In this document: positions 36,768 to 41,060 of the stretch, piece after piece
Layout of the letters: every line of letters starts with the position of its first letter
Numbering within the stretch: the stretch's first letter is position 1
DNA from: Candidatus Altimarinota bacterium
GTDB taxonomy: Bacteria; Patescibacteriota; Gracilibacteria; BD1-5; UBA6164
Assembly (NCBI GenBank): GCA_020629795.1
Contig: JAHDCR010000001.1
Location: forward strand, 88,443 to 152,442
Direction: 5' to 3'
Length of the DNA: 64,000 nt
Notes under the pieces: model-generated
Seen by the model: only the letters and a program-made list of their open reading frames with translations
Database searches by the model: none
Told to the model about the DNA's origin: nothing
Position numbers and translations under genes: made by a program

Positions 36768-37328
36768 CTATATTAATCAAATAATAGCTTCTAAGTATTT
36801 TTTATGAGCAATATCATGTCATACTCATAACACTCTAGCATTATGATTTATTTTTAAATTCTTAATCATTTTTTCTGCTCTCTGCTGCAACCTTTCAGGT
36901 TCATCAAGTCCATATATTGAGACAAGTGTATTACTCTTTCTATTCTGTATATCTGACTCGTGATAATTATCTCGAAAATCATTCCATCTCCGTACTCCAA
37001 GTCTCAGTTTATAATACTTAGGAAATAGATGTAAATCTTCGGAAAAATATGGTGAAAGAGAACAAAGAAATACTCTGTGAAGCACATGTTTTTCGGAAAG
37101 TTTTAAAGCTATCATAGCACCAAATGAAAATCCTAAGATTTCAGTATTTTCACTTTCTTGTATCTGTAATTCAGCCTGCTGAATATAGTCAGACATTACC
37201 CTAAACTTCCATGAAATTTCAACAAAACATACCTCATATCATAGATTCTCTAGTTTTTTGATAAGCTCCATATATCATGGAGTCTTTATATCATGCTTAT
37301 ATCAAGGTATTAGGTATATTTTTTTCAT
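36768..37328 (-). CDS. Alpha/beta-fold serine hydrolase
   Basis: MKKIYLIPGY..., EILGFSFGAMIAL (GxSxG), C-terminal GVGHDIAH. The track fragment 36825-37196 extends at both ends through TGA. Confidence 0.6.
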
Positions 37329-37331
37329 AGT

Positions 37332-40300
37332 CTACTTAACCACTAAATTCACAATCTTCCCTGGAACGTAAATTTCTTTTACAAGTGTTTTCCCTTCGAG
37401 CCATTTAGCAACTGATTCATTAGCTTTTGCTTTTTCTAGCACTGAGTCTTTATCCTCTCCTACTGCTATAGTAATTTCTCCTCTGAGTTTTCCAAGTACT
37501 TGTACTCAGATAGTAATCTCATTGTCTACCGTCATAGTGTCATCATATTCTGGCCAAGATGTAAAGAATATAGAATTTCCTTGATATCCAAAAAGCTCTG
37601 CAAATGCTTCTAATTGTCATCCAAACTCTACAAAATAATCTTCTTCAGTTGCTTCATGATGTCTTTTTCCTGTATATTTAGACACGTAAAGACTATTCAT
37701 TGGGAAATATGGATTTAATTCACCTTTTTTAATATCTGTAAGAGTATATTCTCGTCTATATTCAAGAGTTTTCACTTCTCCATTTGGATAGAGAATAGCC
37801 CATGAATCTATATAATGATAATCTAATTTTCCTCCAGCCTGGGATGCTTTTTCCTGGTAGTATGTTATCATGAGTTCAGCTATTTCTTCCTGAGTACACT
37901 CTGATTCTTTTTTTCCTGCAAGTTCAAGTGCTGTTCTTTTGACCTTTGTAGGTTCAAAATCAAAATCTGCATCTCCAAAGTGAATAGATGTATCTGTTGC
38001 TACAATTGGAGCATCAATATCTTTTCATTTATAGACTTCAATCTTTTGAAGCACACATTCAAGTGAAGTTTTCCCTGTTTCTTCTACATCTATAATATCT
38101 GAATATTTTTCTATAATTGCATCTGGATTTAGTCTAGTAAATATTTTTTGAGCCCTCTCTAATTTTGCAGCATTTCCTGTAGCAAAATATACTTTGTCAT
38201 AAGTCTCTCAACTCCCTCACCTCTGAATCTCTTCTCCCTTGGAGGAGAGGGTAGCTTCATTCACCATTTCCCAGCACTCTTCTGCCATATGTGGAGCAAA
38301 TGGATGAAGCAGCTGAATAAATGTTCGTTTCCACTCAATATTTTTCTGTTCATCAACTGGTTCTCCAGTATTGAGAAGAATCATCATTTGAGCAATTGCT
38401 GTATTAAACTTGTAGTTTTCTATATCTTCCTGTATTTTTTTAATCGTTTTGTGAAGTGTCTTCATTGCCTGCTCATCAGATTTTGCTGGTCTCGGATTTT
38501 CTCAGCTCATCATTGCGTAGAACTTATCTAGAAATCTCTTCACCCCAACAATACTACTCGTATCCCACGGTGCTGCATCCTTGAAATCAGCCATATACAT
38601 CTCGTACATTCTGAGCGTATCAGCTCCGTACTGCTCTACTATATCATCTGGATTTATAACGTTTTTCAGTGATTTAGACATCTTTGCTGGAATTTTTTCC
38701 AGCTCTTCACCCGTTTCTATATCAAAGTATTTCCCATCTTTTTCTTCCATCATATCATTCGCAATGAGTCTGCCTGCTGAGTTTCTATAACTCATACCAA
38801 GAATCATCCCTTGATTTCTGAGTCTATAAAATGGTTCTGAAGTAGAAACTACTCCAATGTCATAGAGGAATTTATGCCAGAAACGTGCATACAGTAGGTG
38901 AAGCACTGCGTGTTCTGCACCACCAACATAGCTATCAACCTGTCACCAATATTTTTCCACTTCACTTCATACCAGTGAGTCAGAATTGTTATTATCCATA
39001 AATCTGAGATAGTACCAACATGACCCACCCCACTGTGGCATCGTGTTTGTTTCTCTCTTTCATGCTAGATTGACAGCAAGCTGCACGTTTACAAACTCGT
39101 CCACTTTTGTAAGTGGTGAAGTTCCGTCTCAAGCTGGCTCGTAGGCATCTACTTCTGGAAGTTTCAGTGGTAGCTCGTAATCACATACTATCTTCCCATA
39201 AATACCGTCATAGATTTTAGAAAATTCTTTCTCCCCAATCATCAGCATATCACCATCTCGAACCCAGGCATCATCGCTTGGACTCGTAGGGAGTTGCGCT
39301 ATATCTGCTGCGTCTAAATGTATGAGTGGTATTGGTTCTCCCCAGTATCTTTGTCTACTAAAGAGCCAATCTCTGAGCTTATAATTCGTTGTCTTGTGAC
39401 CAAATCATTTTTCTTCTGCTAAATCTGTAAACTTCTCTTTTGCCTCCTGTGAAGTAAGTCCGTTAAATTCTCCTGAGTTAACAAGTTTTCCATATTCTGT
39501 TGTGGCTCTTTGTCATTCTTGAAATACACTCCAAGCACTTAAATGCGCTTGCCAAGTAATTAAATTAGATACCTCCTCTTTTTCAACCCAGACTCCTGAA
39601 TGATGTCATTCATCTATTTCAGATTGAATTCTTGAATCACTTTTTAACTTAGCGTAAAAAAATCTTCACCACGTTCTCTGATTTTTTTGTTTTGTATGTC
39701 TGAAGCCTTGAGAATAGAAATATGTTCACTCAATATCTCAAATAATTTCTATATCATCATATCATGATTCTTCTACCACCTCTTTTAATACAGTCTCTAG
39801 TTCAGAATCTCATTCCTCTATACCTCATCAAATGAAATGGTAATCTTTCGGCTCATTTTCTTCAATAACAAATATTTCTCCTGCATCATTTTCTAAAATC
39901 ACATCAATCACTTGTCTATTTAGAGTTTCAACTCACTCTCTTTCAGCAGAAACTCAAGTATGAATGTTATTTTTTGCTATACTCTGCTTCACTTTTAAAT
40001 CATACTTTTTTGCAAATTCAAAGTCTCGCTCGTCGTGGGCAGGGACAGCCATAACAGCTCCTGTACCGTAAGAACCAAGGACATAGTCAGCTATCCAGAG
40101 AGGAACTTGTTCCCCGTTGTATGGATTGATGACATAACTCCCGGTAAAAACTCCGGTTTTTTCTTTGTCATCTGCAGTTCTATCTTGGTCAGATTGTTTT
40201 CCAGCTTTTGAAATATATGCTTCACATGCCTGTTTTTCACTCTCAGCAATAAAGTCTGCAACATCTGGATGATCTGGAGCAATTACTGCGTAAGTCATAC

Positions 40301-41060
40301 CAAAAACAGTGTCTACTCTCGTAGTGTACACTCTGATAGATTTCGTGTCATCATCTGATTTTTTGAGTTCAAACTCACATCCCTGAGATTTACCTATCCA
40401 GTTTCGTTGCATATCTTTAATACCCTCTGGCCAATCAAGGTCATCAACATCGTTTAAAAGTCTCTCAGCGTATTTTGTAATTGCGAGAACCCATTGTCTT
40501 ATTTTCTTCTTTTCTACCTGTGTTCCACATCTCTCACAGCTAAAGTCACCGAGTACTTCTTCATTTGCAAGACCTGTTTTACATGATGGACAATAGTTAA
40601 TTGGGAGATCTTGCTCATAAGCTAGCCCCTTTTCAAAGAGTTTCAAAAATATCCACTGTGTCCATTTGAAATACTCAGGATCTGTTGTGTCTATTTCTCT
40701 CTCCCAGTCATAAGAAAATCCAAGAGACTGGATTTGCCTCTTAAATGTAGCAATATTTTCATCTGTCGTGATGCGAGGATGAGTCCCTGTTTTGATCGCA
40801 TAGTTTTCAGCAGGAAGACCAAAAGCATCCCAGCCCATAGGATGAAGTACATTATATCATTTTGCGTGTTTATAACGAGCTACAATATCATTGGCTGTCA
40901 TTCCTTCAGGATGTCCAACATGGAGTCCAGCTCCCGATGGATACGGAAACATATCCAGACAGTAGTATTTAGGCTTAAGAGAAGTATTACTCGTCTTAAA
41001 AGTATTATTTCGCATCCAATAGTCTTGCCATTTTTTTTCTATTTCTTGGTGATTGTACAT
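37332..41060 (-). CDS. leuS: Leucyl-tRNA synthetase with two large in-frame domain insertions (1242 aa)
   Basis: Five track fragments share one frame and are joined by [15 protein letters not shown] (HIGH), CP1 editing domain, [45 protein letters not shown] (KMSKS), C-terminal [14 protein letters not shown]...[13 protein letters not shown] stop 37332-37334. Confidence 0.9.
37578..38261 (-). other. Ham1/ITPase-like domain inserted in the LeuRS C-terminal region
   Basis: About 228 extra aa between [15 protein letters not shown] and [54 protein letters not shown] follow the RdgB/Ham1 pattern (ATGNxxK, EETG, DDSGL). Confidence 0.6.
38214..38255. repeat. CT/GA-rich hairpin element inside leuS (copy A)
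   Basis: CCCTCACCTCTGAATCTCTTCTCCCTTGGAGGAGAGGGTAGC, with stem CTCTTCTCC/GGAGGAGAG. Shares CCCTC..CTCTGAATCTC with the intergenic copy at 46476-46520. Confidence 0.55.
39498..39953 (-). other. Nudix-hydrolase-like domain inserted after the LeuRS CP1 editing domain
   Basis: About 150 extra aa between ...[14 protein letters not shown] and [14 protein letters not shown]. Nudix-box-like [23 protein letters not shown] (39759-39830; the consensus E and R are replaced by D and K). Confidence 0.65.

Follow-up and report, generated by a model that had tools for sequence, protein, structure and literature searches.

The leucyl-tRNA synthetase (LeuRS) gene, leuS, in a 64,000-nucleotide (nt) stretch of DNA from Candidatus Altimarinota bacterium (GenBank assembly GCA_020629795.1, contig JAHDCR010000001.1, positions 88,443 to 152,442; hereafter the window) encodes an enzyme with a 228-residue insertion in its C-terminal part. 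Judging from profile comparisons and a structural model, this segment is a complete domain of a divergent subfamily of the Ham1/RdgB nucleoside triphosphate (NTP) pyrophosphatases, joined to its host through flexible linkers. Members of the same subfamily show a recurrent physical and genomic linkage to leuS: the association was formed repeatedly, both by insertion into LeuRS, at three sites, and as the upstream neighbor of bacterial- as well as archaeal-type leuS. While the component families are well known, a Ham1 subfamily in a conserved, multi-site association with LeuRS is new. The features on which this finding rests are the following.

37332..41060, minus strand: leuS coding sequence, 1242 codons plus stop under genetic code 25, with 23 TGA codons read as glycine (from translation and Pfam)
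38202..38261, minus strand: variable N-terminal linker of the insertion (residues 934-953), containing two TGA codons; its length and sequence vary among orthologs, and its counterpart in the ortholog P0004 has a low predicted local distance difference test (pLDDT) score
37584..38201, minus strand: Ham1/RdgB-like NTP pyrophosphatase domain (residues 954-1159), as indicated by Pfam PF01725, hhalign, an AlphaFold (AF2) model and Foldseek
37992..37994, minus strand: codon of D1023, corresponding to D70 in family numbering and to the second Asp of the RdgB motif ADDSGL; invariant in 35 of 35 family members

Identity and fold of the inserted domain

The insertion comprises residues 934-1161 (nt 38261-37578, minus strand) and separates the anticodon-binding domain from the C-terminal tRNA-binding domain. 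LeuRS proteins that are free of an insertion here have some 10-15 residues at this junction, as in P0018, with ...EEIWQKLENSGFICQQEWPKYDE; the alignment to the C-terminal domain of Thermus thermophilus LeuRS begins at WPDSLFEAGWPELDE. An initial annotation, made from the DNA letters alone, had proposed a Ham1/ITPase-like domain within the C-terminal part of LeuRS, with about 228 residues in a place where bacterial LeuRS normally has about ten. The size difference is borne out, the motifs quoted at the time can all be located in the translation (starting at residues 917, 954, 989 (IIDVEETGK), 1017 (APIVATDTS) and 1168 (SWPEYDD)), and the assignment itself is upheld by Pfam, profile, hhalign and AF2/Foldseek comparisons.

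In Pfam, the family to which the initial annotation had pointed, PF01725, is matched above its gathering score of 22.5 bits both by the isolated insert (27.7 bits) and by the full protein (24.2 bits), with the match covering only positions 1-71 of the 186 in the profile. A free-standing member of the subfamily, P0032, matches the same profile with 42.9 bits over positions 2-172. To collect further sequences, 1.84 billion cluster representatives were searched with a profile of 304 positions, which included columns of the LeuRS C-terminal domain. The resulting 2743 matches are mostly plain LeuRS C-termini and were used solely as a sequence source, cross-checked with a domain-only hidden Markov model (HMM) and with a host-agnostic metagenome scan. 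The search places the insert in a distinct family of domains of about 200 residues, of which we aligned 35 free-standing and embedded members with 26-70% identity to the window copy (alignment A4). A profile of this alignment finds solved Ham1/RdgB chains with E-values from 3.4e-13 (3tqu) to 1.5e-8 (2pyu), and an hhalign comparison of the 35 sequences with 15 canonical RdgB sequences yields a probability of 99.8% and an E-value of 7e-30 over 176 aligned columns.

For structural comparison, the insert and C-terminal domain of the ortholog P0004 were modeled with AF2, using an alignment of 42 sequences that belong mostly to the subfamily and include no clearly canonical RdgB. The model has a pLDDT of 83.6 overall and of about 92 over the insert, with low-confidence linkers on either side. 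In a Foldseek search of the Protein Data Bank (PDB), its top 28 matches are all Ham1, ITPase or RdgB structures (E-values 4.5e-10 to 1e-7, about 205 aligned columns), with target-normalized template modeling (TM) scores of 0.58-0.80 for this predicted structure; an earlier, shallower AlphaFold model gave the same Ham1/ITPase answer. We also considered an intein, or another self-splicing or mobile element, and rejected it: no Hint or splicing family is matched in the LeuRS, and the same search did find a real intein in P0025. No second Ham1 gene was found in the 64-kb window.

Conserved residues of the subfamily

Within the family of 35, N10, K13, E41, K53, D70, P167 and K179 are invariant, and A7, R16, E48, P65, R89, Y115, R150 and T177 are nearly so. 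The key residues, in LeuRS numbering, are N963, K966, E994, K1006, D1023, R1042, R1103 and K1132, all of which are retained in the six Gracilibacteria loci from metagenome-assembled genomes (MAGs) that we compared (L001-L006). N963, K966, E994, K1006, D1023 and R1042 align with the N, the K, the E of EETG, the K of ENAxxKA, the second D of ADDSGL and the R of PGxYSAR in canonical RdgB, respectively, which we take, from the structures of RdgB and ITPA, to form the triphosphate/Mg site. In addition, the subfamily has conserved motifs of its own, namely DPxxVKRNAL, LSQEEI...Y, YFPxRSLY and TGK.

Conservation among Gracilibacteria

The Ham1-like insert is present at the identical junction in all seven Gracilibacteria orthologs recovered, i.e. 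in the six MAG loci, which are species representatives in GTDB and come from different projects, and in one protein from the Joint Genome Institute (JGI). Further Logan and ENA fragments have the same junction. The architecture is thus no singular case but is conserved in a Gracilibacteria clade, and across the candidate phyla radiation (CPR) and DPANN the same subfamily recurs in or beside leuS. Identity to the window copy ranges from 51 to 75% for the insert, from 51 to 81% for the editing domain in connective peptide 1 (CP1) and from 71 to 96% for the catalytic core; the insert is about as well conserved as the CP1 editing domain, and it is under purifying selection. The GC content at third codon positions is 0.17-0.18 in both inserts of the protein, the Ham1-like domain and a Nudix domain described below, versus 0.30-0.34 in the core.

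L002, L004, L005 and L006 differ from the window protein by further short and partly low-complexity insertions at the start of CP1 (around residues 228-236) and around residues 580-640. These are positions at which other CPR LeuRS proteins hold whole domains.

Reading frame and genetic code

With TGA read as sense, the minus strand from 41060 to 37335 is a single frame of 1242 residues, which includes 23 TGA codons and neither TAA nor TAG, in a sequence with a GC content of about 31-41% in 2-kb windows. Read with table 11, the same minus-strand region (~37.3-41.1 kb) breaks up into a series of short open reading frames (ORFs). The TGA at codon 68 aligns with a glycine that is invariant in 11 of 11 standard-code CPR LeuRS proteins, and those in the Nudix box align with glycines in Nudix-bearing homologs. 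This placement at conserved glycine positions argues for code 25, in which TGA encodes glycine, and against a split gene. The host is a code-25 Gracilibacteria-like organism; the nearest relatives all carry the label Candidatus Gracilibacteria. Four of the TGA codons (948, 951, 1012 and 1148) lie within residues 934-1161, so that table 11 yields five fragments sharing one frame, and the continuity which the initial annotation had stated for them is confirmed by the TGA-as-sense translation. Unless code 25 is applied, genes of this type end up in fragments or with wrong annotations.

The reassignment extends throughout the window, where about 35% of the glycine codons in ORFs are TGA. No tRNA genes were found in the 64-kb window, and the tRNA-Gly(UCA) expected for code 25 is thus not visible there.

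An artefact, be it an assembly chimera, a stop-interrupted pseudogene or a wrongly chosen genetic code, would account for the many short ORFs into which table 11 splits the gene, but we give it virtually no credence. At a GC content of 33-37%, the frame runs through 1242 codons without TAA or TAG, its TGA codons fall on invariant glycines, and the insert is under purifying selection. Moreover, the identical junction in six MAGs of different projects and in JGI, ENA and Logan assemblies contradicts chimerism at the junctions, which the initial annotation had named as a way in which its proposal might fail.

The subfamily within and beside other LeuRS genes

Outside the Gracilibacteria, the subfamily is found in further CPR LeuRS proteins at different positions. 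In at least 12 clusters, it is inserted right after the sequence NWIGKSEG at the start of CP1; by Pfam, these hosts include P0018, P0019, P0020, P0026, P0029, P0030, P0033, P0044 and P0067. In P0051, it follows RQRYWGEP and is accompanied by a HAD_2 domain. P0033 is the Candidatus Portnoybacteria protein OGZ35000.1 (UniRef100_A0A1G2FBJ3, with the UniRef name 'Leucine--tRNA ligase'), and another LeuRS host is labeled 'Patescibacteria group bacterium'. Several CPR LeuRS carry other domains as well. A Nudix domain occupies the same CP1 loop as in the window protein in P0026, P0029 and P0033, a PF06821 serine hydrolase occurs in P0018, P0030, P0033, P0044, P0084 and P0091, and a nucleotidyltransferase in P0019; in CPR LeuRS other than the window protein, that CP1 loop can hold Nudix or Ser_hydrolase. 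Insertions of whole domains (Ser_hydrolase PF06821, HAD_2, nucleotidyltransferase) are concentrated in CPR LeuRS, which makes it a hot spot with four recurrent sites: the CP1 start, the CP1 loop, the position after RQRYWGxPIP, and the linker that joins the anticodon-binding domain to the C-terminal one.

A neighbor-joining tree of the subfamily, calculated without support values and not used to count insertion events, shows free and embedded copies interleaved. A homologous-protein search with the C-terminal half (A5) returned eight matches and added nothing.

In the metagenome scan, we used a single domain-internal pattern, [DN]P[VA]xVKRNAL, which was confirmed against a free-standing member. 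It retrieved 34 loci: in 21, LeuRS contains the domain at the CP1 site, and the other 13 are free-standing ORFs of 201-223 residues. Eight of the embedded cases also have a Nudix insert, and two a serine hydrolase. Seven of the 13 free-standing genes are followed immediately, in the same orientation, by a full-length leuS that lacks an insert. The gap measures about 10-40 nt in L014, L016 and L042 and about 520 nt in L015, where leuS is of the bacterial type (TIGR00396, 948 bits); in L036, L037 and L039, it measures 14 nt and leuS is of the archaeal type (TIGR00395, 965 bits versus a cut-off of 648.5). The next gene upstream encodes aIF-1A in L036 and L039. Farther upstream, we find an S66 peptidase (LD-carboxypeptidase/MccF family) in L014 and L015 and a PF06821 serine hydrolase in L042. 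The archaeal contexts probably belong to the DPANN group (Diapherotrites, Parvarchaeota, Aenigmarchaeota, Nanoarchaeota and Nanohaloarchaeota).

Some free-standing copies have other neighbors. The gene lies directly downstream of GlyRS in L010, directly upstream of Sua5/YrdC in L012, about 0.8 kb upstream of TrpRS and after a hibernation-factor-like gene in L021, L024 and L025, and, in L046, directly upstream of a Peptidase_S51 gene, after which comes an ASCH-domain gene. Still other copies have unrelated surroundings. The proximity to genes for translation or for hydrolases may be no more than a consequence of which genes tiny genomes contain.

The host LeuRS and its Nudix insertion

Apart from its insertions, the host LeuRS looks intact and, from its motifs, editing-competent. 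Pfam detects tRNA-synt_1 with 144.6 bits, the editing domain tRNA-synt_1_2 with 210.4 bits and Anticodon_1 with 63.1 bits. The last 81 residues align with residues 795-876 of T. thermophilus LeuRS and 801-879 of Escherichia coli LeuRS (E-values 1e-10 to 3e-8), and Foldseek likewise matches the C-terminal domain with LeuRS-tRNA complexes. The following features could be assigned.

40911..40922, minus strand: HIGH signature (HVGH, residues 47-50) of the class I catalytic core, from the translation
39957..40406, minus strand: first part of the CP1 editing domain (residues 219-368), with TTRVDT and AVPAHD kept (Pfam PF13603, profile positions 1-147 of 185)
39498..39953, minus strand: Nudix domain in the CP1 loop (residues 370-521) (Pfam NUDIX, PF00293, 54.8 bits versus a gathering score of 21.1)
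38670..38684, minus strand: KMSKS signature (residues 793-797), from the translation
38247..38474, minus strand: C-terminal part of the anticodon-binding domain (residues 863-938) (Pfam Anticodon_1)
37335..37577, minus strand: C-terminal tRNA-binding domain of LeuRS (residues 1162-1242), from profile alignment to solved LeuRS and from Foldseek

The Nudix-like insertion at 39498-39953, which the initial annotation had also suggested, is real by its Pfam score. Its Nudix box, at residues 412-434, reads G-x5-D-x7-K-E-V-x-E-E-x-G-Y and differs from the consensus GX5EX7REUXEEXGU by two conservative substitutions, D for E and K for R, with the EE pair kept; the ortholog L003 has a perfect box. Among eight Gracilibacteria proteins compared, the Nudix insert is present in three: the window protein, L001 (51% identity) and L003 (17%). 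It is thus younger or less stable than the Ham1-like insert. Within it, 11 of 15 glycine codons are TGA, as against 12 of 77 in the rest of leuS (Fisher p 2e-5), which suggests that the insert has long been exposed to code 25 and speaks against its recent acquisition from a donor with the standard code.

Immediately downstream of leuS lies one further ORF that might be relevant here.

36768..37328, minus strand: alpha/beta-hydrolase-like ORF of 186 residues with a GFSFG nucleophile elbow, starting 4 nt after the leuS stop

Its Pfam matches to abhydrolase families are weak and below threshold. It is, at 26 bits, the best match in the window to an HMM of the Ser_hydrolase inserts from other CPR LeuRS; we treat this link, which comes from a single-pass HMM, as weak, and jackhmmer drew in any alpha/beta hydrolase. 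At the syntenic position in relatives, the ORF is missing and a YgjV-like membrane protein directly follows leuS. Possibly, by its similarity to those inserts, it belongs to the same leuS-linked set of hydrolases.

Predicted function and alternative explanations

Is the inserted domain an enzyme in the service of its host? We infer that it is a catalytically active NTP pyrophosphatase and a dedicated partner of LeuRS, rather than a random passenger, and hold this to be roughly an even call. On this reading, the insert would convert an NTP to the monophosphate and pyrophosphate in an Mg-dependent reaction, with a nucleobase pocket unlike that of the enzymes specific for inosine or xanthosine triphosphate (ITP, XTP). 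In related lineages, members of this subfamily are found at other surface positions of LeuRS or are encoded by the gene that immediately precedes leuS, often traveling with Nudix and serine-hydrolase modules. The most likely job would be the clearing of aberrant nucleotides, or of nucleotide-like compounds, close to the synthetase. The argument for a partnership follows the logic of gene fusions and neighborhoods, since the association has been re-created at several sites of LeuRS and upstream of two distinct LeuRS types.

Several observations weigh against one or the other half of this proposal, those on the chemistry of the domain being the following. The acidic residue ahead of the catalytic Asp (DD in RdgB, ED in ITPA and Mj0226) is absent; T1022 takes its place, in a column that is variable in the subfamily and holds an invariant D in canonical sequences. 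Likewise, the C-terminal K/N-x-x-S-H-R motif, presumably the base-recognition element by the structures of ITPA and RdgB, has no equivalent in the subfamily: the hhalign alignment ends just before it, and all 15 canonical sequences have its H and its R. The score against TIGR00042, the NCBIfam equivalog of RdgB (XTP/dITP diphosphatase, dITP being deoxyinosine triphosphate), is 22.6 bits and thus far under the cut-off of 145.35, so the domain should not be named XTP/dITP diphosphatase. Canonical Ham1 enzymes are dimers, whereas the window domain is embedded in LeuRS. In the LeuRS P0091, from another lineage, the copy is degenerate (K13S, E41K, D70N and R150S) and yet retained, which indicates that an insert can persist without catalysis. 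The ITPase likeness seen initially therefore holds for the Ham1 fold and for the phosphate/Mg residues; it does not extend to a canonical ITPase, as the SHR motif and the first acidic residue are missing. With the phosphate/Mg residues kept and the SHR motif missing, the domain would most probably be active as an NTP pyrophosphatase but differ in its substrate or base specificity, although the same losses could mean that its activity is weak or altered.

These losses could also be read as those of a non-catalytic module, in which the Ham1 fold would serve as a nucleotide-binding sensor or as a structural element for LeuRS regulation, tRNA binding or dimerization. The degenerate P0091 copy would fit such a role, as would the position of the insertion next to the tRNA-binding C-terminal domain and the presence of KomB, from the Kongming system, among the structural matches (entries 8zsg and 9xvc, resting KomBC and dITP-KomBC complexes). 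We nevertheless consider this quite improbable: seven positions, including the Mg/phosphate set, are invariant across free and embedded copies that share 26-70% identity with the window copy, which is an enzyme-like pattern, and free-standing copies of 200 residues are common.

The second half of the proposal, the dedication to LeuRS, is challenged by the possibility of a passive passenger, i.e. an independent house-cleaning NTP pyrophosphatase that, in a tiny CPR genome, is parked in an essential, insertion-tolerant gene solely for co-expression or retention and has no LeuRS-specific role. The linkers flanking the insert are flexible on both sides, in a beads-on-a-string layout. The subfamily also occurs inside topoisomerase IA (P0025, together with Nudix and a LAGLIDADG intein, and P0039) and inside an archaeal Cbf5 pseudouridine synthase (P0028, also L011), between its TruB and PUA domains and next to a gene for a family-B polymerase; elsewhere, Nudix or Ser_hydrolase is its sole fusion partner (P0090, P0122, P0031), and free-standing copies exist away from leuS. 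The link of the subfamily to LeuRS is thus a strong one, yet it is not exclusive. CPR LeuRS, in turn, accepts unrelated inserts (HAD_2, nucleotidyltransferase and Ser_hydrolase) and may be a permissive scaffold. Against this, the domain was placed independently at three or more LeuRS sites, and its conserved position upstream of leuS of both the bacterial and the archaeal type is more than mere tolerance would readily account for. Furthermore, no host other than LeuRS was found among the 34 census loci, in a scan whose pattern was drawn from a subset rich in LeuRS-embedded copies and favors LeuRS hosts, as does the representative-search profile with its LeuRS C-terminal columns. On balance, a mere passenger seems to us possible but rather unlikely.

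Returning to a dedicated partnership, the co-occurring Nudix, PF06821 and S66/MccF-family hydrolases make a clean-up suite for adenylates and nucleotide analogs an attractive hypothesis. The roles that the initial annotation had considered possible, namely hydrolysis of non-cognate aminoacyl-adenylates, of ApnA by-products or of non-canonical NTPs at the active site, are speculative. In its broadest form, it would posit for CPR and DPANN a LeuRS-dedicated set of Ham1-like, Nudix and serine hydrolases in or next to leuS (PF06821, S66/MccF-family and the small ORF), acting on the chemistry of the synthetase or as a nucleotide-signal switch, which we deem unlikely. The compounds that such a suite could destroy at the active site are aberrant ATP analogs, toxic or wrongly made molecules resembling aminoacyl-adenylates, and dinucleoside polyphosphates; as a switch, it could instead adjust LeuRS when a nucleotide signal is present. 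If true, an aminoacyl-tRNA synthetase would have quality control or protection of a new kind as an integral part. Should the coupling of the Ham1-like domain to LeuRS be functional, it would point to an unrecognized requirement of this synthetase in organisms that depend on scavenging for their nucleotides, be it nucleotide sanitation, adenylate proofreading or defense against inhibitors. If the coupling is only structural, these proteins still provide a natural map of the LeuRS surface sites that tolerate the insertion of a whole domain.

Comparison with known systems

As a synthetase, the window protein resembles bacterial LeuRS (TIGR00396; E. coli 4aq7 and 4arc, T. thermophilus 1h3n and 2byt) in its class I core with HIGH and KMSKS, in its CP1 editing motifs and in its anticodon-binding and C-terminal domains. 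It differs by the addition of a Nudix domain in the CP1 loop and of the Ham1-like domain in the linker leading from the anticodon-binding to the C-terminal domain, by its length of 1242 residues versus 878-880 in the solved T. thermophilus and E. coli chains, and by its use of TGA for glycine. Other CPR LeuRS, such as P0033, contain the same Ham1 subfamily, many of them along with Nudix in the same CP1 loop; in these, however, the Ham1-like domain is found at the CP1 start or after RQRYWGEP rather than in the C-terminal linker, the code is standard and the annotation is automatic only.

As a hydrolase, the insert shares with RdgB, ITPA, Ham1 and Mj0226 (PF01725; PDB 1k7k, 2q16, 2j4e, 1b78, 1v7r) a fold with a TM score of up to 0.80, homology over about 176 columns and the residues N, K, E, K, second D and R. 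It lacks their SHR motif and acidic residue, possesses motifs of its own and scores below the RdgB equivalog cut-off, and it sits within another protein, while canonical Ham1 is a free homodimer of about 200 residues per chain.

Proteins of the same architecture have already been deposited under automatic names, namely 'class I tRNA ligase family protein, partial', 'Leucine--tRNA ligase' and 'non-canonical purine NTP pyrophosphatase'. In a full-text literature search and a 2026 survey of domain insertions, with most subscription journals outside their scope, we found neither a LeuRS with Ham1 or Nudix nor a linkage between Ham1 and leuS. The remark in the initial annotation that it was aware of no described LeuRS with either domain agrees with the literature that was covered; the databases, by contrast, do hold such proteins, for instance UniRef100_A0A1G2FBJ3.

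Ham1 folds have been recruited into larger assemblies elsewhere. KomB, the HAM-like subunit of the Kongming anti-phage system (8zsg, 9xvc), is matched by the subfamily in structure (Foldseek) and weakly in sequence (E-value 0.027). It is, however, a separate subunit of a defense complex, solved with dITP in one entry (9xvc), and a sensor or defense role is not indicated for the LeuRS insert. Ham1-like domains also occur in potyvirid polyproteins, e.g. that of cassava brown streak virus, where a Ham1-type pyrophosphatase likewise forms part of a larger polypeptide. There, the host is a viral polyprotein that is cleaved by proteases, unlike the stable insertion in a cellular enzyme seen here. 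Among synthetases, NCBIfam NF040702 (isoleucine--tRNA ligase, N-acetyltransferase domain-containing), which we compared by family name only, combines a bacterial class I enzyme with an unrelated enzyme domain, but it concerns another synthetase and another added fold. Finally, aminoacyl-tRNA synthetases have classically gained new functions through additional domains, most of them non-catalytic and described chiefly in eukaryotes; the protein described here is a bacterial LeuRS with two complete hydrolase domains.

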